Shown here: positions 27,950-40,540 of the stretch, one piece after another
Layout of the letters: each line of letters starts with the position of its first letter
How positions within the stretch are numbered: position 1 is the first letter of the stretch
Origin: Escherichia phage vB_EcoD-Elw
Reading direction: 5' to 3' (one strand)
Length of the DNA stretch: 64,000 bases
Sequence record: OR621298
Made by a program: the position numbers and the translations under genes
The notes under the pieces: generated by a model
Databases searched by the model: none
Seen by the model: only the letters and a program-made list of their open reading frames with translations
Told to the model about the DNA's origin: nothing

Positions 27950-28025
27950 TGGTAGTTAGTAGTGGATTTGAACCACTGTAGTCGCTCCGTATGAAGGAGG
28001 TGCATAACCACTCTGCCAACTAACT
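27950..28025 (-). tRNA. tRNA anticodon CAT (Met or Ile-lysidine)
   Basis: Hand fold: 7-bp acceptor AGTTAGT/ACTAACT, T-loop TTCAAAT, anticodon loop TTCATAC, encoded CCA. Confidence 0.55.
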
Positions 28026-28121
28026 GTTATGTTTTACTAGACTAAGTAAGTATTCTTTATACTCTTTAGACCAATTAGCTTTTTTAAACTTTCCTGGACG
28101 CATAGTCTTAATTCCTAGATT

Positions 28122-28198
28122 TGGTACTCCGGGAGGGATTTAAACCCCCGATCTCTCGGTTATCAGCCGAGTGCTTTAGATCGCTAAGCTACCGAAGT
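28122..28198 (-). tRNA. tRNA-Ile (GAT)
   Basis: Hand fold: anticodon arm CTCGG-CTGATAA-CCGAG, acceptor with one G-U, encoded CCA. Confidence 0.6.
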
Positions 28199-28213
28199 AT
28201 TAGAATATTTACA

Positions 28214-28504
28214 TCATACACTGTCTAAGTAAGAAGTATAATGGAATTTAGCTTCTCCAGTCTTATCTACTTCTACCTCAGTTCGTGGTACTTGACGAAC
28301 CACACCATGAATCATCTTATAGCGAATGCCTTTAGCTGGTTCATGATCTTTTGGGAATACTTGTTTAACCGTTACTACTTTATATCCTTCACGCGGTGTT
28401 AACACTACTACTTGATCACCTTCTTTGATTTTCCAAGAAGATGGAAATTCATAGGTATATCTTTGACCACCAGTTTGGAATACTACAGAAAGATAACGTT
28501 TCAT
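28214..28504 (-). CDS. hypothetical protein
   Basis: 96-aa ORF; RBS GAGAGGGAAA. Confidence 0.45.
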   Translation of the reverse strand: MKRYLSVVFQTGGQRYTYEFPSSWKIKEGDQVVVLTPREGYKVVTVKQVFPKDHEPAKGIRYKMIHGVVRQVPRTEVEVDKTGEAKFHYTSYLDSV

Positions 28505-28578
28505 TTGGTTTCCCTCTCATTAATTTATATAGATAGTATAACAAGAAATAAGAGAGAAGGCAAATGAATTTTTAAATT

Positions 28579-28653
28579 TGGTGCTCCCACCAGGAATCGA
28601 ACCCGGTTCAGATGCTTACAAGGCAACTGCATCGCCAGCAATGCTTTAGGAGC
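28579..28653 (-). tRNA. tRNA-Thr (TGT)
   Basis: Hand fold: anticodon loop CTTGTAA, T-loop TTCGATT, CCA encoded. Confidence 0.55.
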
Positions 28654-28820
28654 GATGATCCCGTTATTTCAACGGGATTTCTTTTTCAATAACAGGAGAC
28701 TTATCAGTCATAACTGTCATTGCCATTTGTTGTAGAAATTCAAAGGTGAAGGCTACACGTTCTTCACCAATCTCTACTTCTACACGTTTCTTTTGTTTAT
28801 CGATCTTGACTTTTAGGTTG

Positions 28821-29042
28821 TCAGCCATCTTCGGGTTCTCGTTGCTGCGCTACTTCTAGCCAGTCTGGTAGAAGAAACTTTGTACGAAATTCTTCGTAAG
28901 TTTCTTTGGGATAAAAGCTAAAACCTCCTTTCTCATCATTCAGGATAACAGAACCGTCAGTTTGTTCGTATGCTCGGTATGTTTCCCCAATAACAATAAC
29001 TCGTTTATCAGTACTTTTATTACGAAACTCAAAAACGTGCAT
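28821..29042 (-). CDS. hypothetical protein
   Basis: 73-aa ORF. Confidence 0.4.
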   Translation of the reverse strand: MHVFEFRNKSTDKRVIVIGETYRAYEQTDGSVILNDEKGGFSFYPKETYEEFRTKFLLPDWLEVAQQREPEDG

Positions 29043-29058
29043 AATGTTCCCTTAAAGT

Positions 29059-29134
29059 TGGAGCGGCTAGAGGGAATCGAACCCTACTCAGCGAGGCTTG
29101 GAAGGCCTGCGACACAACCCGTGTGCTTAACCGC
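29059..29134 (-). tRNA. tRNA-Gly (TCC)
   Basis: Hand fold: anticodon loop CTTCCAA, T-loop TTCGATT, acceptor GCGGTTA/TAGCCGC, CCA encoded. Confidence 0.6.
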
Positions 29135-29142
29135 TTATTGTT

Positions 29143-29220
29143 TGGCAGGGGATATTGGATTTGAACCAATGATCTCGACTTCAAAGGCCGAAGCTTTAGA
29201 CCAGGCTAAGCTAATCCCCA
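29143..29220 (-). tRNA. tRNA-Gln (TTG)
   Basis: Hand fold: anticodon arm TCGGC-CTTTGAA-GTCGA; position 1:72 unpaired (U-U); CCA encoded. Confidence 0.55.
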
Positions 29221-29226
29221 ACTGTT

Positions 29227-29302
29227 TGGCAGAAGGTAGTAGGTTCGAACCACTGATCGGGGTTTCAGAGACCCCAGCCTTAACCGACTTGGCTAACCTT
29301 CT
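29227..29302 (-). tRNA. tRNA-Gln (CTG)
   Basis: Hand fold: perfect acceptor AGAAGGT/ACCTTCT, anticodon arm GGGGT-CTCTGAA-ACCCC, CCA encoded. Confidence 0.6.
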
Positions 29303-29486
29303 TCTTAATACTTTTTGGATCTTCTAAACGTTTGCCTTCATGATCTACTCGAATAACTCCGCACCCTTCGCAAACCACAACTACACCATAACCTTCTTTG
29401 ACCTCAGCTTCTGTAATCAAACCAGAAAGATCACCAGTATCTCTGCCCCACATATCAATGGAGCATTGTTTGCAGAAATCAGCCAT
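29280..29486 (-). CDS. small zinc-ribbon-like protein
   Basis: 68-aa ORF with CKQC and CEGCG pairs; 3' end overlaps tRNA-Gln by ~23 nt. Confidence 0.4.
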   Translation of the reverse strand: MADFCKQCSIDMWGRDTGDLSGLITEAEVKEGYGVVVVCEGCGVIRVDHEGKRLEDPKSIKKKVSQVG

Positions 29487-29511
29487 ATTTTATTTCCTAT
29501 TTAAGTTAATT

Positions 29512-29588
29512 TGGGGTGGCTAGTGGAATTCGAATCCACATAGGCCTGATTCACAATCAGGATCATTAACCAATTATGATATAGCCAC
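29512..29588 (-). tRNA. tRNA-His (GTG)
   Basis: Hand fold: acceptor GTGGCTA/TAGCCAC, anticodon arm CCTGA-TTGTGAA-TCAGG, T-loop TTCGAAT, CCA encoded. Confidence 0.65.
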
Positions 29589-30088
29589 AATTGAAAACTC
29601 GCAGGGTTAGCGAAACCTTCCTCAATTAGCATGTTCTAGAATACTAATCAAGTTATCTCCTATTGCACGCAGCTCAAGACGAGTACGAATTTTCAATTGT
29701 GGTGGCTCTCAGAAACTCTTCTACTCTAGCCTTAGCAGCTTACTCCCGAACGCATGTCGGGGAAGTCTTACTAAGAGCTTCGAATAGCACCGTTACACTT
29801 TGAGCCATAGATGTATCAAGAAGCAGAAGGACTTGAACCTTCACGAGATAGACCATTTATCTCAGCCGCTTTATGAGGTATGTTGCAGGGAGTGGATGTT
29901 CCCTATAAACCTTTTAGGCAGCCCCGTCTACCGATTCCAGCATACTTCAAGAATTTTTATAAACCAGCAGAAGCCTCATTTAAAGCATCAACAATAGCTT
30001 CACGTTGGGTCATTCCATACCCAGTGGAATCTAGGTGTGGCAAATAAGCCATCCATCCCTTATCTGTTTCATGAAGGCATGCTTTAAA

Positions 30089-30107
30089 TTTTTTTTTTTT
30101 TTTTTTT
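30089..30107. repeat. 19-nt poly(T) homopolymer (poly(A) on the coding minus strand)
   Basis: 19 consecutive T read directly; lies inside a short minus-strand ORF that starts at 30143 behind RBS AAGGAA. Confidence 0.9.
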
Positions 30108-30163
30108 ACCGTCCTTCATTGTTACAGTAACTGTTTTGCTCATAATGATTCCTTATAGTTAAT

Positions 30164-30253
30164 TGGAGGAAGGTAATGGAGTCGAACCATCACCGTATCA
30201 CTACAGCGGGCTAGTTTTCAAGACTAGTTGCGTACCACTACGCCCTACCTTCC
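30164..30253 (-). tRNA. tRNA-Ser (TGA), class II
   Basis: 90 nt; acceptor GGAAGGT/ACCTTCC, anticodon arm CTAGT-CTTGAAA-ACTAG, long variable arm, CCA encoded. Confidence 0.6.
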
Positions 30254-30260
30254 ATTTGTT

Positions 30261-30351
30261 TGGCGGAAGAGGAGAGATTTGAACTCTCAAGCCGTTTTAC
30301 CAGTCAGCCACTTTCCAAGCGGTTTTCGTCGCCAATTCGATTTGCTCTTCC
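30261..30351 (-). tRNA. tRNA-Ser (GGA), class II
   Basis: 91 nt; acceptor GGAAGAG/CTCTTCC, T-arm GAGAG-TTCAAAT-CTCTC, long variable arm; anticodon assignment tentative. Confidence 0.45.
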
Positions 30352-30384
30352 AATAATAAGATGATGCCTCTATCACACCAGGCA

Positions 30385-30460
30385 GTTACGCCTCGCTGGG
30401 ATTCGAACCCATTAAAACAGCTCAACCGAGATAGTAGATTTAATTTACTCTGACCATCAA
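30385..30460 (-). other. tRNA-like element with canonical T-arm but no foldable acceptor stem
   Basis: GGGTTCGAATCCC T-arm motif present; no 7-bp acceptor pairing or CCA found by hand. Confidence 0.3.
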
Positions 30461-30463
30461 ATT

Positions 30464-30540
30464 TGGTGCGTGACAAGGGATTCGAACCCTCAAAACCCGA
30501 CTTCTAAGGACGGTATGTATGCCAATTCCATCAATCACGC
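30464..30540 (-). tRNA. tRNA with anticodon TAG (Leu-type anticodon) in a short 77-nt class-I-like body
   Basis: Acceptor GCGTGAT/GTCACGC (one G-U), T-arm GAGGG-TTCGAAT-CCCTT, anticodon loop CTTAGAA, discriminator A, CCA encoded. Confidence 0.45.
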
Positions 30541-30545
30541 GTATT

Positions 30546-30620
30546 TGGTGGACAAAGAGGGACTCGAACCCTCCCTACCAGATTGCAAATCTGGTGTGCT
30601 CCCGCTGACACTATTCGCCC
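30546..30620 (-). tRNA. tRNA-Ala (TGC)
   Basis: Anticodon arm CCAGA-TTTGCAA-TCTGG, T-arm GAGGG-TTCGAGT-CCCTC, acceptor with two G-U pairs, CCA encoded. Confidence 0.6.
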
Positions 30621-30997
30621 AAATTTATTAATCCAGCATGTACTTCTCTATGGCAGTTAGAGCATAATAGTACGCACTTTTTAAGTTCTGCTATTACTAC
30701 TTCTCTGTTTCTACGAGAAGTTCTAAACCTTGCAATGGAGTATTCCTTTTCTTCTGGATTAGTATGGTGGAAATCTAAGGCTTGTTTACACCTATTATAT
30801 CCACAAATACTACATTCTAATACAGGAAATACTTCTTTAATTAATTCTTCATGTCCAGCTACTCGTTCAGCTTTTTCACATGCTTTACATGTTGGCTTCC
30901 ACTTCTTTGTGCCATTAGGAGTAAATCCATTCGAATAAAAATATTCGGTTGTTAACGGATATTCATTCCCACAGGCTCTACATGTTTTTGTACACAC
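30611..30997 (-). CDS. HNH homing endonuclease
   Basis: 128-aa ORF; N-terminal Cys pairs and C-terminal HNH signature (DFHHTNP...CSNCH); 3' end overlaps tRNA-Ala by 10 nt. Confidence 0.7.
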   Translation of the reverse strand: MCTKTCRACGNEYPLTTEYFYSNGFTPNGTKKWKPTCKACEKAERVAGHEELIKEVFPVLECSICGYNRCKQALDFHHTNPEEKEYSIARFRTSRRNREVVIAELKKCVLLCSNCHREVHAGLINLGE

Positions 30998-31357
30998 TGC
31001 GTTAACCCCTGTAAGTTTACTAAGGCTATTAGCTCGGCGTAACTACAGCACCTTCGCTTCGAGCGGAAGGAACTGCGTCATCTCGCAAACCCGATACACT
31101 ATTCAGTTGCCGCTGAATCTAGTGGACTAATCTAGAACTTCTCCCGAATTGTAGGGATCGTGCTTTTTGGCAGCCAGTCCTAGGTCGAGCTAATACCTTA
31201 GTGAACTAAATTGATGGATACCAGACTAATTTTGCTACGACGTTTATCCTGAGGATCTCTTTTTCGGTAGCTCTGCTAGTGTAGACGTCATACACCTGGT
31301 ATCTAGGCAGCTATTTTCGCATCAATTTATATAAATATTATAACAAGAAATTAAGCA

Positions 31358-31720
31358 TTAAGCAAGTACATTTTTAGCGATTTCCTGTAGTTCCTTTACA
31401 TCACGAACGTAAAGGTAATCAGAGCTTCCAGAGTGCATACTTTGCATAACCACACCTTCATCTGGTGCATTATCCTTCAAGGTAATTCCTAGCCAGAACT
31501 CGGCAAAACTAGGTGTTATCTCACCTTGACTTGCCTTGAATACATCATATTCTGTAAGTTCTTGACCAGTAGATAATCCCAAATAGACAGAACTAAGATC
31601 AATCTCTTTATGAGACTCATAAAATTCCGATAGATCTTTTTCCATATCCCAGCCATGCTGCAATGCGAACTCCATTGTCACATGACCGAAATAACCTTGA
31701 ATCTTGTTTGATAATTGCAT
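31358..31720 (-). CDS. hypothetical protein
   Basis: Track ORF 31358..31726 starts at TTG; trimmed to ATG with RBS AAGGA. Confidence 0.45.
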   Translation of the reverse strand: MQLSNKIQGYFGHVTMEFALQHGWDMEKDLSEFYESHKEIDLSSVYLGLSTGQELTEYDVFKASQGEITPSFAEFWLGITLKDNAPDEGVVMQSMHSGSSDYLYVRDVKELQEIAKNVLA

Positions 31721-31745
31721 TTGCAATTCCTTATTTTGAGTTAAT

Positions 31746-31819
31746 TGGTACTCGGTGATAGAATCGAACTATCACAACCGCCGTGTAAAGACGGGGTTCT
31801 CCCATTAAACTAACCGAGC
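31746..31819 (-). tRNA. tRNA-Val (TAC)
   Basis: 74 nt; anticodon arm CCGTC-TTTACAC-GGCGG, T-arm GATAG-TTCGATT-CTATC, CCA encoded. Confidence 0.6.
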
Positions 31820-31823
31820 AATT

Positions 31824-31901
31824 TGGTAGATCGCCTGGGATTCGAACCCAGAACTGACGGATTAAAGGTCCGCTACTCTTATCCAGTTGAGCTAGCGATC
31901 T
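31824..31901 (-). tRNA. tRNA-Lys (TTT)
   Basis: Perfect acceptor AGATCGC/GCGATCT, T-arm CTGGG-TTCGAAT-CCCAG, anticodon loop CCTTTAA (C at position 33 is unusual). Confidence 0.5.
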
Positions 31902-31902
31902 A

Positions 31903-32070
31903 TTAGTAACCATTATATACCTCTTTAATAGAGTGAACTTTCAAGTAAGGGTGATTAGTATTAAACTCTGCCATTACTTCATCCCAATTTTTACCATAAT
32001 GTGCAAGTAAGGATCTTGAGGTATTATTACCTAAACGTTTGTCACTTACTACTAATCGAAATACTTTCAT
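31903..32070 (-). CDS. small protein (55 aa)
   Basis: Not in ORF track; ATG with RBS AGAGGA; translated by hand; fills the gap between tRNA genes. Confidence 0.35.
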   Translation of the reverse strand: MKVFRLVVSDKRLGNNTSRSLLAHYGKNWDEVMAEFNTNHPYLKVHSIKEVYNGY

Positions 32071-32090
32071 TTCGAAATCCTCTATTAAAG

Positions 32091-32167
32091 TGGAAGCGGG
32101 TGCAGGAATCGAACCTACCTCTTTCTAGCTTATGAGACTAGCGATCTCTACCAGAGATCTAACCCGC
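32091..32167 (-). tRNA. tRNA anticodon CAT (Met or Ile-lysidine)
   Basis: Anticodon arm CTAGT-CTCATAA-GCTAG at canonical position; acceptor and T-stem contain mismatches. Confidence 0.45.
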
Positions 32168-32174
32168 AATTGTT

Positions 32175-32252
32175 TGGTCTCCGTGGGAGGATTTGAACCC
32201 CCGACCCTATCGCCCCAAACGAAACGCTCTGGCCAAACTGAGCTACACGGAG
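32175..32252 (-). tRNA. tRNA-Pro (TGG)
   Basis: Acceptor CTCCGTG/CACGGAG, D-stem GCTC/GAGC, anticodon loop TTTGGGG, T-loop TTCAAAT, CCA encoded. Confidence 0.55.
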
Positions 32253-32256
32253 AATA

Positions 32257-32415
32257 TTATTTCTTCAACCACAACAAAGATAAGCCCAGCATACTAAAGC
32301 CGCTAACTAATCCGATACATTTTTCTTCTATAGTAAAAGTATCTAGATTAAATGCTGTTATAGCTATTGGCATACACCATAATGTCATAAAAACTTGAGC
32401 TATCTTGTGTTTCAT
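32257..32415 (-). CDS. small hydrophobic protein (52 aa)
   Basis: Not in ORF track; ATG with RBS GAGAAGGAAAG; sits immediately upstream of tRNA-Pro. Confidence 0.35.
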   Translation of the reverse strand: MKHKIAQVFMTLWCMPIAITAFNLDTFTIEEKCIGLVSGFSMLGLSLLWLKK

Positions 32416-32725
32416 TTTGCTTTCCTTCTCTTCACTTTATAAAATATATTATACAGATAATATAGCAGAATAGCAAATGAATTTTTAATAAATTTACTTA
32501 TTGTGTAGGCCACCTGGAGGCTACCAACCCCACGGCTGACAAAGAAGTTTGCGAGACCTCTCTTAAATGCCAGAATAGACCCGCCGATCTATCGGAACCT
32601 ACATAATAAGTAAACTTTCGTTTACTTACGCCCCGTTAGAGGGACTTTAGCGACTAGAACCGGCCGGAAACTTCATCGCCTTGTTTATTCAGAAGTCCGT
32701 TCTCTAGGGAGCAGAAATCTAAATT

Positions 32726-32800
32726 TGGTGGAGTTTGGGAGACTACGTGTTACTCCCTCTGTCCGAAGTAGGATAGTGCTTAACCGTTTAGCTGAACCCC
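32726..32800 (-). other. tRNA-like element (acceptor- and D-arm-like stems, CCA end, non-canonical T and anticodon arms)
   Basis: Plus-strand AAATTTGG junction as at true tRNA 3' ends; acceptor GGGGTTC/AAACTCC pairs 6 of 7; 5-bp GGGAG/CTCCC stem with 11-nt loop replaces the T-arm. Confidence 0.3.
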
Positions 32801-32979
32801 TTTAAATATTTATACGTTTTATCTAACAACTCTTGTTTAGAGATTATACCATCACGATATTCAGTAATAAAATTATCTATGTTGGAGTCCTTTGATACAA
32901 CGTTATCAGATAGCTCTGTGAATTTATTTGCTAAAAGATCTAATTCTTTGTAATTCACAAAACCTCCAGAATATGCCAT
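32788..32979 (-). CDS. hypothetical protein
   Basis: 63-aa ORF. Confidence 0.4.
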   Translation of the reverse strand: MAYSGGFVNYKELDLLANKFTELSDNVVSKDSNIDNFITEYRDGIISKQELLDKTYKYLKGFS

Positions 32980-33219
32980 TCTAGACAGGACTCGAACCTG
33001 CTATCACTTGTGCGGACTTACGAGAACCATTCTTTCACTCGAATCGAACGAGCTTCTGCCCTAGCCAAGCTGGTTTCCCCATCAACCACGCTAGAATGTT
33101 TGATTGTTTTCAGTGCAAGAGTCCGAGTCTTGGACACGACCGCTTCGCAAGTACATAGGCAGCTTATCATGAGTCAGCACTTCCGAATTGCTAGCTCCGT
33201 GTTCTGCACTGAGATTTTG

Positions 33220-33567
33220 TTAATTTAATAGTAAAGTACGATCTACTTCACCATTAATTGTTCGGCATTCCTCTGGAATTGCTGGTGTAGTCTTATATTC
33301 CCACCATTCAGAACCATCATATTCACCACGTTCTAACCAAGTTCCATCAGTAAACCATACGTTACCATAAAGCAATTGTCCACCGAAACCAGAATCATAT
33401 TTAAAGTCTAGATTATTTAGAAAATCTTCAATATCTTTTTCTGTATAACCTACGGGTAATACCCAAACTTCTTTGTCTCCATAATAACCGAATTCTATCT
33501 TAATACACTTAACTTCAGAATTAGTATTCTTTAGGGCAAGTAACAATTCTTCTTTAGCATTAATCAT
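33220..33567 (-). CDS. hypothetical protein
   Basis: 115-aa ORF. Confidence 0.45.
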   Translation of the reverse strand: MINAKEELLLALKNTNSEVKCIKIEFGYYGDKEVWVLPVGYTEKDIEDFLNNLDFKYDSGFGGQLLYGNVWFTDGTWLERGEYDGSEWWEYKTTPAIPEECRTINGEVDRTLLLN

Positions 33568-33593
33568 AGCATATTTCTCATACTAAATTAATT

Positions 33594-33669
33594 TGGTACA
33601 CCCACTAGGACTTGAACCTAGAACCCTCCGCTTAAGAGGCGGTAGCTCTAACCATTGAGCTATGGGTGT
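33594..33669 (-). tRNA. tRNA-Lys (CTT)
   Basis: 76 nt with canonical numbering: acceptor ACACCCA/TGGGTGT, D-stem GCTC/GAGC, anticodon loop CTCTTAA, T-arm CTAGG-TTCAAGT-CCTAG, CCA. Confidence 0.6.
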
Positions 33670-33675
33670 ATTAAA

Positions 33676-33828: not shown

Positions 33829-33845
33829 AGCTAACCTACCTTATT

Positions 33846-33922
33846 TGGCGCGACCGATGGGATTTGAACCCACATTCCCTCCCGTGACAGGAGAGTACCA
33901 TTACCAAGCCAGCCCCGGTCGC
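33846..33922 (-). tRNA. tRNA-Asp (GTC)
   Basis: Acceptor GCGACCG/CGGTCGC, anticodon arm CTCTC-CTGTCAC-GGGAG, T-loop TTCAAAT, CCA encoded. Confidence 0.6.
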
Positions 33923-33931
33923 ATAATTCAT

Positions 33932-34117: not shown

Positions 34118-34144
34118 GCTTGTTTCCTCAGTTATTAATGAAAA

Positions 34145-34215
34145 TGGTATCTGTGGCTGAATTCGATGTCAGCAATGATAGCTGGTTGGCTACCGGTTTA
34201 CTTAACTCTACACAG
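34145..34215 (-). other. tRNA-like element with 8-nt T-loop and imperfect acceptor
   Basis: 3' ...GATACCA end and GCTGA/TCAGC stem around a CATCGAAT loop; no standard anticodon arm found. Confidence 0.25.
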
Positions 34216-34219
34216 AATT

Positions 34220-34297
34220 TGGCGGTTCCTGCTGGATTCGAACCAGCAAACCTCAACTTAACAAGATGCCGCTCTAACCAATTAGAGCTAAGGAACC
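34220..34297 (-). tRNA. tRNA-Asn (GTT)
   Basis: Perfect acceptor GGTTCCT/AGGAACC, D-stem GCTC/GAGC, T-arm GCTGG-TTCGAAT-CCAGC, anticodon loop TTGTTAA on a weak 3-bp stem. Confidence 0.5.
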
Positions 34298-34792
34298 ATA
34301 TAAGTCAGAACTAGAGTTAATACGTTCTAGATATTTACTAAGATCCCTAGAATTTATACTAAACCACTCATGTTCTTTTAAATCTTTGAAATACTGGTGA
34401 ATTAGTTTTTCACCTTTTCGTTTGTCAAACCAAAACGACCAATGCTCTAATTTATAATCCCTATATGGGGAATAGGTCTGATATTGAGCTAATCTCTCTT
34501 TTGGATTTTGACTCATACCTATTTTATACTGATTTTTCCATGCAGGATTACTAATACAGTATACAAAACCTTCAGAAATAGGAAGTTTATTTTCCTGCTT
34601 AAACTTTATAAAGGAAAGTGCGGCAAGTTTTCTCGAATACATAGTATTCGTATTCTTTTTGGTATTACCATTAGTTCCTGAAAGATTTATATATTCTTCC
34701 ATAAATCTTTGGATTAGTTCTGCGGTTATACAGAAAGGCCCATTAGTAACAACGCCTTTCTTTACCAAACTATCAAAAACTTTTGTATGCAC
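34274..34792 (-). CDS. T5orf172-type GIY-YIG-like domain protein (putative homing endonuclease)
   Basis: 172-aa ORF (GTG start in track); GFVYCISNPAWKNQYKIGMSQNPKERL resembles the GIY-YIG-like T5orf172 domain; 3' end overlaps tRNA-Asn. Confidence 0.6.
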   Translation of the reverse strand: MHTKVFDSLVKKGVVTNGPFCITAELIQRFMEEYINLSGTNGNTKKNTNTMYSRKLAALSFIKFKQENKLPISEGFVYCISNPAWKNQYKIGMSQNPKERLAQYQTYSPYRDYKLEHWSFWFDKRKGEKLIHQYFKDLKEHEWFSINSRDLSKYLERINSSSDLYGSLALIG

Positions 34793-34813
34793 TACTTCTT
34801 TCCTTTAGTAAAT

Positions 34814-34889
34814 TGGACGACCGCATGAGATTTGAACTCACATAAAAAGGATTTGCAATCCTTCGCCTAAGCCCTTCAGCCAACGGTCG
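34814..34889 (-). tRNA. tRNA-Cys (GCA)
   Basis: Anticodon arm AAGGA-TTGCAAA-TCCTT, T-loop TTCAAAT, acceptor CGACCGT/GCGGTCG, CCA encoded. Confidence 0.6.
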
Positions 34890-34958
34890 GTTTATCTTGT
34901 TCTGTCATGTTGCTTCTCCAGTTCAATTTATGTAATTATTATACAGAACTTTTGGAAA

Positions 34959-35231
34959 CTAAGCAACTACATTTTTTAAGAATTTGATGCCTTTCTTTTT
35001 CTTCTTATATTTCCACGTTAATGGATTCTGTCGATTATGAACGCTTGAGATCTTTGTCTCGTCAAAGTTCTTCAATATCATGTAATCACAGGATAATTGT
35101 TCTAGTAGAATGTGATCACCGTCAAAAGCGTATACATAAGGCTGTTGACTAACACGATAATGATAGACTTTGTTAATTCTACGTTTCAGCGACTTATCAG
35201 CGCAGTAAATAAAGAAGTTTTCAGGATGCAT
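34959..35231 (-). CDS. hypothetical protein
   Basis: Track ORF 34959..35246 starts at TTG; trimmed to ATG (MHPENFF) with RBS AAGGAG. Confidence 0.45.
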   Translation of the reverse strand: MHPENFFIYCADKSLKRRINKVYHYRVSQQPYVYAFDGDHILLEQLSCDYMILKNFDETKISSVHNRQNPLTWKYKKKKKGIKFLKNVVA

Positions 35232-35248
35232 CAGCAGCTCCTTCAATT

Positions 35249-35323
35249 TGGTGCACCCTGTTCGTATCGAACGAACCTCTCAAGCTCTTCAGGCAAGCGC
35301 TAATCCATCTCAGCTAAAGGTGC
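35249..35323 (-). tRNA. tRNA-Phe (GAA)
   Basis: Perfect T-arm GTTCG-TTCGATA-CGAAC, acceptor GCACCTT/AGGGTGC; anticodon loop CTGAAGA on a weak stem. Confidence 0.45.
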
Positions 35324-35329
35324 AAATTT

Positions 35330-35406
35330 TGGCAAACCTACTAGGACTCGAACCTAGACCGTACGGTTTTGGAGACCGACATGCTGTCCAGTAACACTCT
35401 AGGAAT
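35330..35406 (-). tRNA. tRNA-Trp (CCA)
   Basis: Anticodon arm TCGGT-CTCCAAA-ACCGT, T-arm CTAGG-TTCGAGT-CCTAG; acceptor stem has two U-U mismatches. Confidence 0.4.
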
Positions 35407-35414
35407 GCAGAAAT

Positions 35415-35491
35415 TGGCGTCCTGTGCGGGGATCGAACCCGCAAATCCTACCTTGAAAGGGTAGTGACTTTACCAGTTTGTCTAACAGGAC
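35415..35491 (-). tRNA. tRNA-Glu (TTC)
   Basis: Perfect acceptor GTCCTGT/ACAGGAC, anticodon arm CTACC-CTTTCAA-GGTAG, T-arm GCGGG-TTCGATC-CCCGC, CCA. Confidence 0.65.
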
Positions 35492-35498
35492 TTAAATT

Positions 35499-35589
35499 TG
35501 GTGTTGGATGATGGAGTCGAACCACCCGAGACCCTTCCGAGTCGGCAGATTTACAGTCTGCTTCGCTACCTCTACGATACTAATCCAAC
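35499..35589 (-). tRNA. tRNA-Tyr (GTA), class II
   Basis: 91 nt; perfect acceptor GTTGGAT/ATCCAAC, anticodon arm GCAGA-CTGTAAA-TCTGC, long variable arm, CCA. Confidence 0.6.
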
Positions 35590-35719
35590 ATATTTAGAAG
35601 TATTCAAAAATTCTCATTTAAACACTTTTAAATATGCTTTCAAATTAGGTAACTATTATACCAAGTTTTAAGGCACTGAGCAAGTCAAATTTTAAAGAAC
35701 TTGCTCAGTGCTATATTAG

Positions 35720-35995
35720 TTAGTCGAACTTAGGAGTGACAGTTAAGGAGAACGGAAGTTCGAAAACTTCTTCACCCTCATTACTAACGGTAACTACACG
35801 ACCTTTAAGTTCAGACATTAAAATATCAATATCAGCTTTTGCATCTGGAGCCATGCCAGCTTCAATACATTTAGCTTTAACCTCCGGTAGAAGATCTACG
35901 TTATAGAGATAGAGCCACTCAATCTCACCTTCCCAGTCTTCCCAGGATTTGCAGATTGCACTTTCAATACCAGTTGCTACAACACGATTTTGCAT
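35720..35995 (-). CDS. hypothetical protein
   Basis: 91-aa ORF; RBS GAAGGAG. Confidence 0.5.
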   Translation of the reverse strand: MQNRVVATGIESAICKSWEDWEGEIEWLYLYNVDLLPEVKAKCIEAGMAPDAKADIDILMSELKGRVVTVSNEGEEVFELPFSLTVTPKFD

Positions 35996-36085
35996 TCGTT
36001 AACTCCTTCATCAATTTATACAACTATTATATCAGAAATTTAAAGCAAAAGGCAAGTACATTTTTAAAAATTCTGTTTGGAGGAG

Positions 36086-36292
36086 CTAAACTCCAGATTC
36101 TTCAGCTAAGTCTAGGCTAATAAGAGTTATAGCCATAATTGCTGCACCGTGTTCTTTTTCTCCGGTGTTTTTAGCAGAGTCTATAATAGTCTTAATCTGT
36201 TCGTAATAGCCTTTTACTTCTTGTTCAATACCTGCCTCGGCTATCATGCCTTTAGTCATGATTCGTTGCATAGTAATTTCACGGTTAGCCAT
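36086..36292 (-). CDS. hypothetical protein
   Basis: 68-aa ORF. Confidence 0.45.
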   Translation of the reverse strand: MANREITMQRIMTKGMIAEAGIEQEVKGYYEQIKTIIDSAKNTGEKEHGAAIMAITLISLDLAEESGV

Positions 36293-36452
36293 GATGTTTC
36301 TCCAGCTTCATTTTTAATAGTTTACAAATGAAATCAACGTCTTCATCTGTACCTAGATCTCTATCTTCAAGAGTTGCCTTGAAGTTTTTAGTCAATTCCA
36401 TGAGGATAACTTCTCTAGAACGACGTGTTGGCGGAGGTGGATGTCTATACAT
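36285..36452 (-). CDS. small Pro-rich protein (55 aa)
   Basis: Not in ORF track; hand-translated; 8-nt overlap with the downstream start codon. Confidence 0.35.
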   Translation of the reverse strand: MYRHPPPPTRRSREVILMELTKNFKATLEDRDLGTDEDVDFICKLLKMKLEKHHG

Positions 36453-36467
36453 CTTATTTCCTTAGTT

Positions 36468-36544
36468 TGGTAGGGGTGGTGGGATTCGAACCCACAAAAC
36501 CTGAATTTTAAGTCCAGTACCTATGCCAATTCGATTACACCCCC
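36468..36544 (-). tRNA. tRNA with anticodon TAA (Leu-type anticodon) in a short 77-nt class-I-like body
   Basis: Perfect anticodon arm CTGGA-CTTAAAA-TTCAG, T-arm GTGGG-TTCGAAT-CCCAC, discriminator A, CCA; variable region only 5 nt. Confidence 0.5.
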
Positions 36545-36551
36545 GTGTAGT

Positions 36552-36740
36552 TTAGTCAATTACTTTTGAGGCTTCAAGGTAGTCGATATAGTGTATGTTT
36601 TCTACCGTAATCATATAATCTGCCACTTTATCCATAGCTTGGGCTTCAGAGGTAGCTCTGGCTAACCTATATCCTTTTTTATATTCATCCGGGTATTCTC
36701 TATCTTGGATAAACACAACATAAACTATATATAGATCCAT
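36552..36740 (-). CDS. hypothetical protein
   Basis: 62-aa ORF. Confidence 0.4.
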   Translation of the reverse strand: MDLYIVYVVFIQDREYPDEYKKGYRLARATSEAQAMDKVADYMITVENIHYIDYLEASKVID

Positions 36741-36759
36741 TTGTGACCTCTATTTAATT

Positions 36760-36837
36760 TGGTGGCTCCCCGAGGATTCGAACCTACGTACCTTCCGGTT
36801 ATGAGCCGGGTGCTCATACCATATGAGCTTGAGAACC
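36760..36837 (-). tRNA. tRNA anticodon CAT (Met or Ile-lysidine)
   Basis: Anticodon arm CCCGG-CTCATAA-CCGGA; acceptor pairs with two G-U; T-stem only 3 bp. Confidence 0.45.
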
Positions 36838-36843
36838 AGAATT

Positions 36844-36932
36844 TGGCGGAAGAAGCGGGAATCGAACCCACAAGGCTATATTTCAAACCGACAGATTAGC
36901 AATCTGCTGCAATACCGTTATGCTATTCTTCC
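36844..36932 (-). tRNA. tRNA-Ser (GCT), class II
   Basis: 89 nt; perfect acceptor GGAAGAA/TTCTTCC, anticodon arm GCAGA-TTGCTAA-TCTGT, long variable arm, T-loop TTCGATT, CCA. Confidence 0.6.
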
Positions 36933-36953
36933 GAATTTATAAGATATATTATA

Positions 36954-37472
36954 TTAGAAATTTAGCTTCATAGCAAGAAAATTTTTCAAGTTTTCGGTAG
37001 ACATCTCATCCACATCTACGGGAGAAACAAAGCCGTTTAATTTTCTAGCAAATTTTTCACCCGCAGGATCATTATCTCCGACAGCTACCAATTTAAAAGG
37101 TAGTAATTTCAGTTGCTTTAATAACGCTTTTCCTGGAGAAGAACCCAACATTGCTAGGGCTGGATAACCAGCATTATGTAACGCAACTGCCTTAAATACA
37201 GATTCAGCAATCAATACTACTTTTTCATCTCCATTGAGAGTTTCTAGTCCCCATACACACTGGGTAGTAGAATAAGTAAAGTATTTAGCTTCAAAGGGGC
37301 ACTTACCATGACCTTTTGGAGCAGAAGGATTATAAGTTTGATAGCCCCTCAACATCCCAGAGAAGTCATACAACGGGACTGTTAGCCATCCTTCCGGACT
37401 TAACCAGCAATGATATTTATCTGTATCAAATCCTCTAGATAAGAGGTGCTGTGTTAGCTCATCAACATTCAT
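36954..37472 (-). CDS. Toprim-domain protein (DnaG/primase-like catalytic core)
   Basis: Track ORF trimmed to M18 (the first 17 codons are the promoter read backwards); VAVGDNDPAGEKFA is a Toprim DxD signature; RBS AAGAGGAA. Confidence 0.5.
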   Translation of the reverse strand: MNVDELTQHLLSRGFDTDKYHCWLSPEGWLTVPLYDFSGMLRGYQTYNPSAPKGHGKCPFEAKYFTYSTTQCVWGLETLNGDEKVVLIAESVFKAVALHNAGYPALAMLGSSPGKALLKQLKLLPFKLVAVGDNDPAGEKFARKLNGFVSPVDVDEMSTENLKNFLAMKLNF

Positions 37473-37502
37473 ATTTGGTTCCTCTTTCAAATTTATAGAT
37501 AT

Positions 37503-37531
37503 ATTATACAGAGAATTTAGCATTCAAGCAA
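37503..37531 (-). promoter_or_regulatory. T5-type early promoter
   Basis: -10 TATAAT, -35 TTGCTT, 17-bp spacer, conserved downstream box. Confidence 0.6.
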
Positions 37532-37646
37532 TCAAATTTTTTAACTTTTTAGAGGAAAATCATAGGGCACTTAAGGATAGCAGATAAGTGGTGAGGACCA
37601 AAATTTGTGACCCCACTAAAAATTCAGGGGCAATTTTTAAAGACCC

Positions 37647-37675
37647 CTTGACATTTTCGCTGGGGTAGTGTAAAG
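37647..37675 (+). promoter_or_regulatory. sigma70-like promoter (-35 TTGACA, -10 TAAAGT) for the plus-strand cassette
   Basis: Consensus -35 with 17-bp spacer; -10 matches 4 of 6; preceded by a GGGG...CCCC hairpin. Confidence 0.4.
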
Positions 37676-37737
37676 TATATGTTATGGATGAGTGATCAAA
37701 GAGACACACATTTTCTATATACTAGGAGGTGTCAAAA

Positions 37738-38721
37738 ATGACAGAAGAAGTAGCTAAGAGTCCTGAGACCGTCGCTAGCGTTGCAGCAGAACTGCACCGT
37801 CACGAGGAATCAGATAAGAAAAAGTGGGAGAAGGTCAGAGCCTACGAAGAAAAACATCGTGAACACGATGATGAAGAAGATGATGATGAACATTGTCATA
37901 AATATGGAAAACATAAAATGCAAGAACCAGTAAACGTATTTACTAGTGGCTTCCCTGGCCTACTGGGTGGTTACCCAGCAAACGCAGGTGCTTTCGGTGG
38001 TGAAGGTATGGGACTATTCGGAGCTATCCTAATCGGTGCTCTATTAACAGGCGGATTCGGTGGTTTCGGTGGATTCGGTGGACGTGGTGTAGTTGGTGAT
38101 GGTACCGCAGTTGATGCAGTACTTCAGAACCAAGATACCGCTAGTATTCTAGCAGCTATTAACACTACTCGTACAGAAGCTAACCAGGGTACTGGAGCTG
38201 TTTTAAGCGCAGTTAACAATGGGTTTAGCCAGACATCCCAAAACCAGAGCCGTGATACTCAGTCTGTACTAACTACGATCTATGGTACAGGTGCTAATCT
38301 GTCTAATCAGATCTGTCAGGAAACTCGCAACGTTATTCAGGGTCAGTTCGATCTTTCTCGCCAGATTGATCAATCTTTCGCAGCTAATCAGATAGCTCGT
38401 GCACAAGATAAGTTTGATTCTGCACAGATCGCTTTCCAGCAGACTTTACAAACTAATAACCAGTTTGCCGCTGTTCAGGCTCAGATGTGTGCTAACCAGA
38501 ACTCTCTGGAACGTCAGATCGCTGAATGTTGCTGTGAACTTCAGACTGCGATCGCTGGTGTAACTACTGCGCGTATTCAGGATGAGTTAGATGCATGTCG
38601 CCTACGTGAAGCAATCGCTGCGGGTAACGGTGCTAACGGTCAGGTAATTAATCAAATCGCTGTAAGTCTTGGTGCTATCACTCAGACTCTGGCTGGTCTG
38701 CAGGCTAAACTGCCGGCTTAA
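37738..38721 (+). CDS. low-complexity protein: acidic/His N-terminus, Gly-rich hydrophobic segment, Q/N-rich C-terminus
   Basis: Track ORF 37729..38721 (GTG) trimmed to ATG 9 nt after RBS AGGAGG; GGFGGFGGFGG and hydrophobic GLFGAILIGALLTGG segment. Confidence 0.55.
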   Translation: MTEEVAKSPETVASVAAELHRHEESDKKKWEKVRAYEEKHREHDDEEDDDEHCHKYGKHKMQEPVNVFTSGFPGLLGGYPANAGAFGGEGMGLFGAILIGALLTGGFGGFGGFGGRGVVGDGTAVDAVLQNQDTASILAAINTTRTEANQGTGAVLSAVNNGFSQTSQNQSRDTQSVLTTIYGTGANLSNQICQETRNVIQGQFDLSRQIDQSFAANQIARAQDKFDSAQIAFQQTLQTNNQFAAVQAQMCANQNSLERQIAECCCELQTAIAGVTTARIQDELDACRLREAIAAGNGANGQVINQIAVSLGAITQTLAGLQAKLPA

Positions 38722-38742
38722 TATTAAGGGGAGGAGCCCATT

Positions 38743-39159
38743 ATGAGTAAATATGGTTTTGTAAATAACGGACTTAATCAAAGTATGGGCTCCCAGCAGC
38801 CCATTCCGGGTCTGGATAACCCCTACTTACAACAATTGCAACAGCGTTTAGCAGAAGCGCAACAGATGCAGCAACAACTCCAGCAAAACCCTGGAAGTGT
38901 GAGTCCTATGCAAATGATGCAGCAAATGAGCGGGCAGTCGCAAATGCCTCAACAAATGCAGCAACAGGTGCCGCAGCAGCAAGCTCAGCAGCAAACCCAA
39001 CAACCGCAGGTTTCTGCGGAAGGACAGGCAGTACTAGCCCTTTTCGAAGACTTCGCAAAGACAGAGGATGGTAAGCAGCTTGTATCACTTATGGGTAAGT
39101 TTAATAGCTTCTGCCAAAGCCAGGTTGCAAAAGCTCAAAATAGTGGTAATAACTCCTAA
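38743..39159 (+). CDS. Gln-rich low-complexity protein
   Basis: 138-aa ORF; RBS GGGGAGGAG; central QQ/MQ repeats. Confidence 0.5.
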   Translation: MSKYGFVNNGLNQSMGSQQPIPGLDNPYLQQLQQRLAEAQQMQQQLQQNPGSVSPMQMMQQMSGQSQMPQQMQQQVPQQQAQQQTQQPQVSAEGQAVLALFEDFAKTEDGKQLVSLMGKFNSFCQSQVAKAQNSGNNS

Positions 39160-39168
39160 GGAGGAATT

Positions 39169-39363
39169 ATGTGTTGCAGAAAATCTGTTTCGTGCTGCCC
39201 AATGCCTGTAGCACGTTGTTGCTCTCCAGCAATGTTTACGCAAATACCGGCGTTCAATCCGTTTGCCTTTAAGCCTACTCTTATCCTGCCCCCTAGAGTA
39301 GATTTTCAGTCAAGATTGGCCTCCCGTATGGGTGGTTGCTGTAATAAGAGTATATGGTTCTGA
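39169..39363 (+). CDS. Cys/Pro-rich small peptide (64 aa)
   Basis: RBS AGGAGG; paired CC motifs (MCCRK, SCC, RCC, GGCC). Confidence 0.45.
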   Translation: MCCRKSVSCCPMPVARCCSPAMFTQIPAFNPFAFKPTLILPPRVDFQSRLASRMGGCCNKSIWF

Positions 39364-39377
39364 AGAACCAAACAATA

Positions 39378-39413
39378 AAGCCCCTAGTCGAAAGACTTAG
39401 GGGCTTTTCTTTT
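39378..39413 (+). terminator. rho-independent terminator
   Basis: stem AAGCCCCTAG/CTAGGGGCTT followed by TTTTCTTTT. Confidence 0.65.
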
Positions 39414-39420
39414 ATCTTAA

Positions 39421-39460
39421 ATACAGAAAAGCCCTGCGCTCTCCAGGAAACGCAGGGCTT
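39421..39460 (-). terminator. rho-independent terminator (convergent)
   Basis: stem AGCCCTGCG/CGCAGGGCT with U-run in minus sense, downstream of the SPFH gene. Confidence 0.55.
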
Positions 39461-39483
39461 ATTTCAGATGTTACATGCGGGTA

Positions 39484-40431
39484 TTACTTATTACGCATAT
39501 CCATAATCATTTGGCCATCATAGCCAGTGCCAACCACAGTCTGCGGTACACCACCTTGGTATTTCTGAGCACGAATCATTTCAACTTCCAGTTGCTTCCA
39601 GCGAATCATCTCAGGAGTAATGGTACGTTGCAACGCGGCGTTAGCTTCAGCTTCTTTCTTAGCTGCGTACAGTTTGGCATCTGCGTCACGCTCATTGGCA
39701 ATAGCTTGGTTATTACGAGCTTCGCGATCTGCTTCTGCTTGTTTAACCTTCTGCTGTGCTTCTTGTTCAACACGAGCCAGTTCAGCTTTCGCAGCATTAA
39801 CTTGCTCTTCACGAACTTTGGTATTCTGTACCTGTTCCATGATTACCGGTGGCAAAGTAATATCCTGAAGGAATACCTGCTTAACTGTATAACCATATGG
39901 GCGTGCATACTCTTCAACTTCCTGTTGAATTGCAGTTTGCAATTGAGCCTGAATTTTAGCATCAAACAAATCTTGTGCTTTAGGTACAGACTTACCAAAC
40001 TCACGAATAGTAGACAGTAATTTTTCAGTTACATATTTGTCTAGCGCTTGATCCTGAGTACCTGCGTTAATACGGTTAATCGGTGCCTTAGAACCATCAA
40101 ACTGCAACATAACAGTCAGGTCAACAGTGGATTTAAACTTATCCTGACTAGGAACCTGAAGTTTATCTAATTTTAGAGCAATATCTTTAGTACTAAAAGT
40201 ATCGAAAGAAGCAAAAGGATTTACAATATGAAAGCCGGGTAGTACTGGGCTAGGGTCAACTTTACCCAGGAAAGTCTGGGTTTTAACAGTACCGTCTTGA
40301 ACAACGGTATAAGAGTTAAAGGCTAGAATCAAGCCTGCTAAACCAACTATAGCACCAATACCCCAACGTTTAATAGTACGAATTACTTTCTGCTCAGAAG
40401 TCAGTTCTTTCATATTTTTAGTATTAAACAT
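39484..40431 (-). CDS. SPFH/band-7 (prohibitin/HflC-like) membrane protein
   Basis: 315-aa ORF; N-terminal TM, SPFH-like core, C-terminal coiled-coil rich in E/A/Q/K. Confidence 0.6.
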   Translation of the reverse strand: MFNTKNMKELTSEQKVIRTIKRWGIGAIVGLAGLILAFNSYTVVQDGTVKTQTFLGKVDPSPVLPGFHIVNPFASFDTFSTKDIALKLDKLQVPSQDKFKSTVDLTVMLQFDGSKAPINRINAGTQDQALDKYVTEKLLSTIREFGKSVPKAQDLFDAKIQAQLQTAIQQEVEEYARPYGYTVKQVFLQDITLPPVIMEQVQNTKVREEQVNAAKAELARVEQEAQQKVKQAEADREARNNQAIANERDADAKLYAAKKEAEANAALQRTITPEMIRWKQLEVEMIRAQKYQGGVPQTVVGTGYDGQMIMDMRNK

Positions 40432-40465
40432 ATATTTCCTTTGTTTTAGTTACAGTTAATAAAAT

Positions 40466-40540
40466 TGGCCGAGGTGACAGGATTCGAACCTGCATAAAGG
40501 AATTTAGAAGACTCCTGCCTCTCCATTAGACTACACCCCG
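40466..40540 (-). tRNA. tRNA-Arg (TCT)
   Basis: Anticodon arm GGAGT-CTTCTAA-ATTCC, T-arm GCAGG-TTCGAAT-CCTGT, acceptor CGGGGTG/CACCTCG, CCA. Confidence 0.6.

Follow-up and report, generated by a model that had tools for sequence, protein, structure and literature searches.

Armless tRNA-Leu genes in the tRNA-rich region of the T5-like Escherichia phage vB_EcoD-Elw

The tRNA-rich region of T5-like phages is well known and is annotated in hundreds of genomes. In the curated record of phage T5 (AY543070) it extends from about 28.0 to 41.6 kb. Several of the T5 tRNAs counteract bacterial defence systems: tRNA-Lys, tRNA-Thr and tRNA-Asn neutralise PARIS, and tRNA-Tyr neutralises retron-Eco7 (PMC11464382, PMC12409363, PMC11555353). 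Codon compensation has been questioned as a general explanation of phage tRNAs (PMC10264068). For the charging of leucine tRNAs, the LeuRS of E. coli requires A73, the A15-U48 pair, G18G19 and A20a, whereas it can do without the long variable arm, and armless variants stay active (reviewed in PMC9976931).

The window analysed here, i.e., the whole stretch of 64,000 nucleotides from Escherichia phage vB_EcoD-Elw (OR621298), derives from a Tequintavirus (T5-like, Demerecviridae), and the locus described in the following is its tRNA-rich early region. The region is 93–97% identical to T5-like phages across 83–90% of its length, and mapping onto the T5 record recovered 19 tRNAs with at least 93.5% identity (18 of them at least 96%) as well as all T5 stable RNAs. 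The initial annotation, which was made from the sequence alone, had assumed a cluster of the T5 type, and this assumption is right. Gene order, strand and the interspersed small ORFs are the same as in T5, and the stable RNAs III, I, 1, 2H, IV, 2, 3 and X all have counterparts in the region. The two loci differ in the absence of the HNH endonuclease genes hegA, hegC and hegD from the window, in two tRNA genes missing from T5, Leu(UAA) and Lys(CUU), and in the alleles of Lys(UUU), Pro, Tyr, Trp and Ser(GGA), which are unrelated to those of T5 or just 73–75% identical. Furthermore, T5 carries an 85-nt class II tRNA-Leu(UAG) in the exact slot where Elw has a 77-nt allele. The comparison with the annotated T5 tRNAs therefore reveals a matching locus, but an allelic difference instead of identity at the Leu(UAG) position. 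The locus itself contributes little that is new, since this region of phage genomes has been sequenced many times and studied by experiment.

In total, 27 tRNA genes were identified on the minus strand between positions 27950 and 40540, of which 24 were found by ARAGORN with default settings, two more at a threshold of 95% and one at 90%. This set includes a tRNA for each of the 20 amino acids and leaves only the CGN codon box uncovered. The roughly 27 minus-strand tRNAs previously folded by hand were all recovered (27/27) at the same coordinates, and the software folding resulted in the same set of anticodons, with the TAG and TAA genes accepted by both ARAGORN and Rfam. Using the Rfam tRNA model RF00005, 26 sites in the window passed the gathering threshold of 29 bits, whereas tRNA-Gly(TCC) and tRNA-Ser(GGA) stayed below it in this covariance model search. 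Gly(TCC) (29059..29134), which needs the 95% threshold of ARAGORN, is 100% identical to T5 tRNAG1, which, according to the T5 record, functions as an amber suppressor once its anticodon is changed. The second gene that needs 95% is the third CAT gene (36760..36837), which was also detected with Rfam (36763–36837); it is 97% identical to T5 tRNAI2 (Ile2) and has two T-stem mismatches. The probable class II tRNA-Ser(GGA) (30261..30351, 91 nt) appears only at 90% and is the weakest call, yet it is 100% identical in the phages chee24, where it is annotated as tRNA-Ser, and S130.

The remaining genes, likewise on the minus strand, were called by ARAGORN with default settings. For tRNA-Ile(GAT) (28122..28198), tRNA-Thr(TGT) (28579..28653) and tRNA-His(GTG) (29512..29588) the call is supported by both Rfam and the T5 mapping, and the elongator tRNA-Met(CAT) (27950..28025), also found with Rfam, is 100% identical to T5 tRNAM. 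Rfam further supports the tRNAs for Gln(CTG) (29227..29302), Ala(TGC) (30546..30620), Val(TAC) (31746..31819), Lys(CTT) (33594..33669), Asp(GTC) (33846..33922), Asn(GTT) (34220..34297), Cys(GCA) (34814..34889), Phe(GAA) (35249..35323), Glu(TTC) (35415..35491) and Arg(TCT) (40466..40540), the class II tRNAs Ser(TGA) (30164..30253, 90 nt) and Ser(GCT) (36844..36932, 89 nt), and the two short tRNAs Leu(TAG) (30464..30540) and Leu(TAA) (36468..36544). Default ARAGORN calls were also obtained for tRNA-Gln(TTG) (29143..29220, G73), tRNA-Lys(TTT) (31824..31901, 75% identical to the T5 allele), tRNA-fMet(CAT) (32091..32168, U1·U72, 100% identical to T5 tRNAfM), tRNA-Pro(TGG) (32175..32252, 73% identical to the T5 allele), tRNA-Trp(CCA) (35330..35406, mismatched acceptor stem, no blastn match to the T5 allele) and the class II tRNA-Tyr(GTA) (35499..35589, 91 nt, allele unlike that of T5).

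The T5 mapping also placed the homologues of the stable RNAs on the minus strand: RNAIII, RNAI and RNA1 at 29590..29951, with RNA1 (29807–29951) containing a Leu-type D arm and a T arm, RNA2H at 31024..31195, RNAIV (32502–32604) and the tRNA-like RNA2 (32974–33098) within 32502..33098, RNA3, a putative tRNA-like RNA with the 3′ end ACCA, at 34145..34217, and RNAX at 40541..41170. A tRNA-like element detected with Rfam and relaxed ARAGORN settings lies on the minus strand inside the RNAX homologue (41042–41115), just beyond the range covered by the initial annotation; it has no CCA and its anticodon stem is poorly paired.

All 27 genes encode the CCA end. The AATT junction that had been described as following almost all of them is overstated, as it is present in ten of the 27 genes, while 19 continue with AA and 25 with A (the background of AATT is 0.9% per position). 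The mismatches pointed out before, U1·U72 in Gln(TTG) and C33 in Lys(TTT) (loop CCUUUAA), are both present, and mismatched stems, of which several had been reported, are seen in Met, Gly, fMet, Pro, Asn, Phe, Trp, Ile2 and Leu(TAG). In addition to this C33, tRNA-Lys(UUU) carries C41, which corresponds to the partly protective 'Mut2', but keeps U39 and thus lacks the fully protective 'Mut1' (both PMC12409363).

Both short leucine genes are 77 nt long with a variable region of five nucleotides (GUUUU in both), as described initially, and an alignment with class II tRNA-Leu bears out that the long variable arm of the canonical bacterial tRNA-Leu is missing. The designation as class-I-like holds for the variable loop but not for the D arm, which is of the class II Leu type: instead of the canonical class I D stem of 4 bp, both tRNAs have a 3-bp D stem with G13 opposite A22 and a loop of 11 nt (G-AAUUGG-CA-UA). 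The variable region comprises 5 nt, whereas it has 13–15 nt in E. coli and 13 nt in T5; the 44 nt preceding it and the 28 nt following it align collinearly with class II tRNA-Leu. A14, the Levitt pair A15:U48, whose U48 closes the variable loop, G18G19 and A20a are kept in the same arrangement as in E. coli leuV, leuZ and leuW, and both genes end in A-CCA, i.e., with the discriminator A73. The anticodons UAG and UAA are each located in a 7-nt loop with U33, and the RF00005 scores are 47.5 bits for Leu(TAG) and 57.4 bits for Leu(TAA). With the E. coli class II tRNA-Leu (leuV/P/Q, leuZ, leuW) they share U8, A73 and the D-arm layout at about 60% identity outside the variable region; no blastn-detectable similarity to the short genes was found in any of 5,426 E. 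coli genomes. Leu(TAG) has a U·U mismatch in the anticodon stem and A37, where E. coli Leu(UAG) has an m1G37-type G37, and both features could affect decoding.

More than 100 phage genomes in the databases carry each of the two genes at 100% identity and already annotated as tRNA-Leu, although some annotation pipelines label the gene 'tRNA-OTHER', which constitutes an annotation hazard. Among the T5-like records, about 161 have the 77-nt armless allele at the Leu(UAG) slot and about 55 the 85-nt class II allele; the amber-suppressor annotation for Leu in the T5 record concerns the 85-nt allele carried by T5 itself. Armless tRNA-Leu genes are also found in Felixounavirus (e.g., TAG, CAA and TAA in vB_EcoM_Shy), in Seunavirus NINP13076, in Vibrio phage JSF12 and on many IMG/VR contigs, and roughly one in four of the sampled IMG/VR tRNA-Leu genes is of this kind. 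These genes have the same D-arm motif, a length of 77–78 nt, a 5-nt variable loop and A73, and their Leu(TAG) members are 84–88% identical to the gene in the window, including the U·U mismatch; they belong to different families and genomic contexts, and some phages add a CAA isoacceptor. In 78 distinct 77-nt phage homologues, 98% of the stem cells pair, a percentage that is partly due to their selection through ARAGORN, which demands a cloverleaf, and compensatory changes occur in all 20 pairs. U8, U48 and A73 are invariant across the 78 homologues, though they lie outside the search pattern. At the same viral loci, tRNA-Ser stays at 81–96 nt (with one call of 72 nt) and tRNA-Tyr at 79–94 nt; loss of the arm is possible in tRNA-Leu, but not in these two tRNAs, because LeuRS alone ignores it.

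The locus is thus very probably a T5-like tRNA-rich region transcribed into multi-gene precursors and serving the upkeep of translation, in which the short leucine genes encode genuine LeuRS-charged tRNA-Leu minus the long arm. The tRNAs would presumably be excised from such precursors by host enzymes. The RNase E of the host prefers A/U-rich sequences, and the A/U-rich sequence 3′ of the CCA (CCA-AAUU in ten genes) would fit cutting by this enzyme. As the full LeuRS identity set is kept and the arm is not required, leucine charging by the host LeuRS is predicted from the sequence, and the two tRNAs would then read UUA/UUG and CUN. Of the leucine codons in the ORFs of the window, 24% are UUA and 21% CUA, the codons read by the two encoded tRNAs. 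The cluster as a whole probably supplies tRNAs for A/U-rich codons that are poorly read by the host, and it would replace host tRNAs destroyed by defence nucleases, a role demonstrated for Lys, Thr, Asn and Tyr of T5.

Decay of the short leucine genes and the other mismatched members into pseudogenes is highly improbable. Mismatches do occur in many stems, tRNA-Gln2 is listed as a pseudogene in the T5 record, where several T5 tRNAs are also stated to fail as suppressors, and degenerate tRNA-like relics (RNA1, RNA2, RNA3 and the element at 41042–41115) are located nearby. However, CCA, A73 and the T loop of the leucine genes are intact, the genomes sharing the identical genes are independent of each other, the substitutions that set apart homologues from three further phage groups are compensatory, and even the sole mismatch of Leu(TAG) is conserved across phage families. 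Equally little probability is given to charging by a synthetase other than LeuRS, or to no charging at all, which would turn the genes into missense or recoding tRNAs or into nuclease decoys. The architecture is non-canonical for a bacterial tRNA-Leu, some pipelines use the 'tRNA-OTHER' label, and it has been suggested that viral tRNAs, when overexpressed, might inhibit AriB competitively (PMC12409363). Yet all LeuRS determinants are present and invariant over the 78 diverged homologues, the tRNAs have neither G3:U70 nor G73 nor a long arm for SerRS, and their anticodons fit no anticodon-reading synthetase except via single-base neighbours. Misreading would moreover be self-damaging, since UUA and CUA are abundant leucine codons in the phage's own genes.

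Unlikely, though less so than these two readings, is an adaptive loss, in which phages repeatedly delete the leucine arm in order to evade a factor of the host or of a competitor, such as a nuclease or a nucleotidyltransferase toxin, that recognises class II tRNAs via the arm. Class II and armless Leu(UAG) alternate at exactly one slot in T5-like phages, and the other alleles swapped between T5 and Elw include the known defence targets Lys-UUU and Tyr. Arm-dependent tRNA toxins exist, such as MenT3, which uses the variable loop to recognise tRNA-Ser (PMC11541572), and human SLFN11 is described as cleaving type II tRNAs in a reference cited in PMC13056530. If this explanation were true, the coexistence of 85-nt and 77-nt Leu(UAG) at one T5-like slot would be the footprint of an arms race. 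On the other hand, Enterobacteria have no known Leu-specific or arm-specific defence, and the same phages keep the arms on Ser and Tyr. In addition, an armless tRNA-Leu is a chromosomal housekeeping tRNA in Actinobacteria, which speaks for plain dispensability of the arm.

In Mycobacterium, Nocardia, Rhodococcus and Corynebacterium, stand-alone chromosomal armless Leu(UAA) and Leu(CAA) genes are found, and the Leu(TAG) of a Mycobacterium tRNA cluster has a short variable loop (PMC6582537). The actinobacterial genes, at 74–77 nt, resemble the phage ones in the AAUUGG D loop, the variable loop of 5 nt with U48 at its end, and A73. Unlike them, they are cellular housekeeping genes, GC-rich and mostly without encoded CCA, and the D loop reads CAAUUGGCAGA in Actinobacteria compared to GAAUUGGCAUA in the phages. 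Animal mitochondrial tRNA-Leu also lacks the long variable arm and obtains its leucine identity via A73 and A14 (PMC9976931), but its D and T loops are degenerate and it is served by a dedicated mitochondrial LeuRS, whereas the phage tRNAs keep the canonical G18G19 and T-loop elements. The armless genes of Elw are real and mildly contradict the textbook, and they belong to a widespread kind that is already known in sequence: phage tRNA clusters commonly contain an armless tRNA-Leu that retains every LeuRS identity element, and in Actinobacteria such a tRNA is chromosomal. The class II and armless alleles at a single T5-like position form a natural pair for asking what the arm does in bacteria.

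ARAGORN with default settings predicted 24 tRNA genes between positions 27950 and 40540, all on the minus strand, and 26 sites in the window reached the gathering score of the Rfam tRNA model. At an ARAGORN threshold of 95%, Gly-TCC (29059-29134) and a third CAT gene (36760-36837), which is also found by the Rfam model (36763-36837), appeared in addition, and Ser-GGA (30261-30351) was detected only at 90%. With default and relaxed settings, all 27 tRNA genes named by hand folding in the initial annotation were recovered. Its coordinates and anticodons were exact for the 24 default genes, including Leu-TAG (30464-30540) and Leu-TAA (36468-36544), both of which were called as tRNAs with these anticodons by the software folding.

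The least secure of the 27 calls is Ser-GGA, which stayed under every threshold in the Rfam search, where its sole match was a sub-threshold tRNA-Sec. It was retained as a gene because of the relaxed ARAGORN prediction, a minimum free energy fold forming a cloverleaf with an extra arm, and its conservation (100% identical in the phages chee24, where it is annotated as tRNA-Ser, and S130); G73 and the CCA end are present. The 27 genes carry 25 distinct anticodons and cover all 20 amino acids. If U34 reads four-way in family boxes, CGN is the sole codon box without a cognate phage tRNA, yet CGU makes up 51% of the Arg codons in the window ORFs. The structural oddities described before, U1·U72 in Gln-TTG and C33 in Lys-TTT, were seen again, and stem mismatches were found in Met, Gly, fMet, Pro, Asn, Phe, Trp, Ile2 and Leu-TAG.

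A CCA end is encoded in all 27 genes and is directly followed by A in 25, by AA in 19 and by AATT in 10 of them. Compared with a background of 0.9% per position, the AATT junction is real and enriched, but it does not follow almost all genes, as had been stated. In E. coli, polycistronic tRNA precursors are cut by RNase E just 3′ of the CCA, and the enzyme prefers RN|WUU with uridine at +2. The CCA-AAUU junction fits this preference and is a predicted cleavage site. Two more CCAAATT motifs on the minus strand near the cluster (~32722-32728 and ~27695-27701) lie outside the called tRNAs and might be the 3′ ends of other processed RNAs.

A search with the 12.7-kb region matched 611 phage records, the best of which are T5-like Salmonella and Escherichia phages with 93-97% identity across 83-90% of the query. 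The curated annotation of T5 (AY543070) was mapped feature by feature onto the window: 19 tRNAs are shared at 93.5-100% identity, 18 of these at ≥96%, and the described stable RNAs RNAIII, I, 1, 2H, IV, 2, 3 and X are all present. The locus is what has been described in T5-like phages as the 'tRNA-rich region', with an almost complete tRNA set (PMC10644984). It differs from T5 by the absence of the three HNH endonuclease genes of the region, by the presence of Lys-CUU and Leu-UAA, which are missing from T5, and by six replaced alleles that are unrelated or 73-75% identical (≤75% or no match by blastn). These are Lys-UUU (31824-31901), Pro (32175-32252), Trp (35330-35406), Tyr (35499-35589), Ser-GGA and Leu-UAG. 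Four minus-strand ORFs inside the cluster or next to it match Pfam domains, namely T5orf172/MUG113 (34274-34792, which shares 24 nt with the 5′ end of tRNA-Asn), Toprim (36954-37523), SPFH/Band 7 (39484-40431) and glycyl-radical (27307-27675).

Two further elements on the minus strand resemble tRNAs. The homologue of the tRNA-like stable RNA1 of T5 (29807-29951) has the D arm TGGAATCGGTAGAC, which shares GGAATCGGTAGAC with E. coli leuZ, and a GGTTCAAGTCC T arm around a disrupted middle; from its sequence, it resembles the remnant of a class II tRNA-Leu. Within the RNAX homologue and beyond the range of the initial annotation, an element at 41042-41115 is matched by the Rfam tRNA model at 41043-41114 with 35.5 bits and called 'Ser-ACT' by ARAGORN. 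It lacks CCA, its anticodon stem pairs poorly, and it is kept in T5 and chee24.

Among the replaced tRNAs, Lys and Tyr are two that host defence nucleases are known to attack. The anticodon stem-loop of Lys-UUU, GCGGA-CCUUUAA-UCCGU, is unlike that of the T5 allele and contains C33 at a position where U is near-universal in tRNAs; this C33 adjoins the cleavage position of PrrC. A sequencing error was rejected as its origin. The C33 allele is real, since it recurs in the phages 26175IV and Kenya-K15 together with compensatory changes in the acceptor stem, and about 96 phage records are ≥95% identical to the gene. It has been shown experimentally that the PARIS nuclease AriB is defeated by the T5 tRNAs Lys, Thr and Asn (PMC11464382, PMC12409363) and the retron-Eco7 PtuAB by tRNA-Tyr (PMC11555353). 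In T5 experiments, the change 'Mut2' (C41) is partly and 'Mut1' fully protective (PMC12409363). The window allele carries C41 with C33 added and keeps U39, the AriB-sensitive state, and is therefore without 'Mut1'.

Both leucine genes are indeed 77 nt long with a 5-nt variable loop (GUUUU). Compared with three tRNA-Leu genes of E. coli MG1655, they are strictly collinear over 44 nt on the 5′ side and 28 nt on the 3′ side, and the sole length difference lies in the variable region (5 nt vs 13-15 nt). Their D arm is not class I but of the E. coli tRNA-Leu type, with a 3-bp stem, G13·A22 and an 11-nt loop (G-AAUUGG-NA-NA). A73, U8, A14, A15, G18G19, A20a and U48 are found in both genes. E. coli LeuRS needs A73, the A15-U48 Levitt pair, G18G19 and A20a, leucylation is uncorrelated with the sequence or folding of the long arm, and armless variants stay active (PMC9976931). 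As the identity set is present and LeuRS does not need the long arm, the host enzyme would be expected to charge both tRNAs normally with leucine. UUA and CUA account for 24% and 21% of the Leu codons in the phage ORFs and are exactly what the two isoacceptors read; in E. coli both codons are rare and served by minor tRNAs. A function of the TAG and TAA genes as stop codon suppressors was rejected, because their anticodons read CUN and UUR and not stops.

At the position directly downstream of tRNA-Ala, with a 5-nt spacer, T5 carries a Leu(UAG) gene of 85 nt (AY543070, locus positions 5625-5709), which is class II with a 13-nt variable arm and unrelated in sequence to the 77-nt armless gene in the window. 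According to the T5 record, this 85-nt tRNA turns into an amber suppressor upon anticodon change, an experiment that concerns the long allele only. The short Leu(TAG) is found in about 161 phage records (≥95% identity), the long T5 type in about 55 (≥90%) and the short Leu(TAA) in about 325 (≥95%). Class II and armless Leu(UAG) are thus a natural polymorphism at one position in T5-like phages. In some deposited annotations, for example MN994504 (H32), the short Leu(TAG) is labelled 'tRNA-OTHER' or left unannotated; evidently, armless tRNA-Leu is handled inconsistently by annotation pipelines.

Recent capture from the host was rejected for Leu(TAG), which has no match in 5,426 E. coli genomes by blastn, even at E=10. 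Homologues with 75-88% identity occur in Felixounavirus, Seunavirus NINP13076 and the Vibrio T5-like phage JSF12, and the Felixounavirus Shy carries three such short genes, with the anticodons TAG, CAA and TAA. T5-like, Felix-O1-like and Seunavirus phages have a U·U mismatch in common in the anticodon stem of Leu(UAG), at pair 30:40 (window, 30464-30540; other phage loci L003, 5997-6074, and L004, 3997-4073), and a neighbouring pair covaries. All compared phage Leu(UAG) genes have A37, in contrast to G37 in E. coli.

In IMG/VR, a pattern of D loop, Leu anticodon, 4-6-nt variable loop and T loop, which is biased to short genes by design and yields a sample and not a total, matched at least 120 loci. 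Among the matches listed, ARAGORN called 160 short (≤80 nt) and 47 long tRNA-Leu, nearly all within tRNA clusters; tRNA-Ser from these loci measures 81-96 nt (with one exception) and tRNA-Tyr 79-94 nt. For the proportion, a pattern neutral to arm length was used, likewise as a sample, and about a quarter of the tRNA-Leu among its matches listed are short (30 vs 94 long). In an alignment of 78 distinct 77-nt sequences (mean pairwise identity 63%), U8, U48 and A73 are invariant, although they lie outside the search pattern. Compensatory changes occur at all 20 pairs, 98% of the stem cells pair (61% in shuffles) and the covariation score is 1.00 (0.25 shuffled, 0.14-0.18 with slid partners), figures affected by the cloverleaf that ARAGORN-selected members must have. 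In GTDB, the matches listed for the short-arm pattern (loci L129-L248) include many stand-alone chromosomal tRNA-Leu(UAA/CAA) of 74-77 nt in Actinobacteria (Mycobacterium, Nocardia, Rhodococcus, Gordonia, Corynebacterium, Arthrobacter and Bifidobacterium) with a 5-nt variable loop, as well as tRNA arrays of cyanobacteria and Acidobacteriota.

The best-supported reading is that the short genes are working leucine tRNAs that lost the long arm because it is dispensable for bacterial LeuRS. tRNA-Ser and tRNA-Tyr keep theirs, and their synthetases rely on it. More than 100 genomes carry the genes without a single change, and their evolution is compensatory; both facts contradict the view that they are pseudogenes, which mismatched stems might suggest. 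Mischarged tRNAs or decoys have no positive support: every LeuRS determinant is present, the determinant set of no other synthetase is, and misreading of UUA and CUA would harm the phage's own proteins.

Loss of the arm could also be adaptive, as an escape from a factor recognising class II tRNAs. The Leu(UAG) polymorphism is compatible with such an escape, the swapped Lys-UUU and Tyr alleles are known defence targets, and arm-dependent tRNA toxins exist elsewhere; however, no factor of this kind is known for Enterobacteria and armless tRNA-Leu is housekeeping in Actinobacteria, which makes this explanation improbable. The observation of the initial annotation is confirmed and its interpretation supported.

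The locus itself is of an already known kind and its very sequences have been deposited before. Armless tRNA-Leu is widespread and not special to the window. A full-text literature search found no papers treating it in phages. For bacteria, a comparative study of Mycobacterium mentions in passing that a tRNA-Leu(TAG) encoded in a tRNA cluster has a short variable loop (PMC6582537), and according to a study of MenT3, only tRNA-Leu-2, 3 and 5 of M. tuberculosis are long-looped (PMC11541572). With armless tRNA-Leu, a textbook statement has a genuine exception that is under-discussed, and the short actinobacterial genes contradict the review statement that the long arm is missing only in tRNA-Leu of animal mitochondria.
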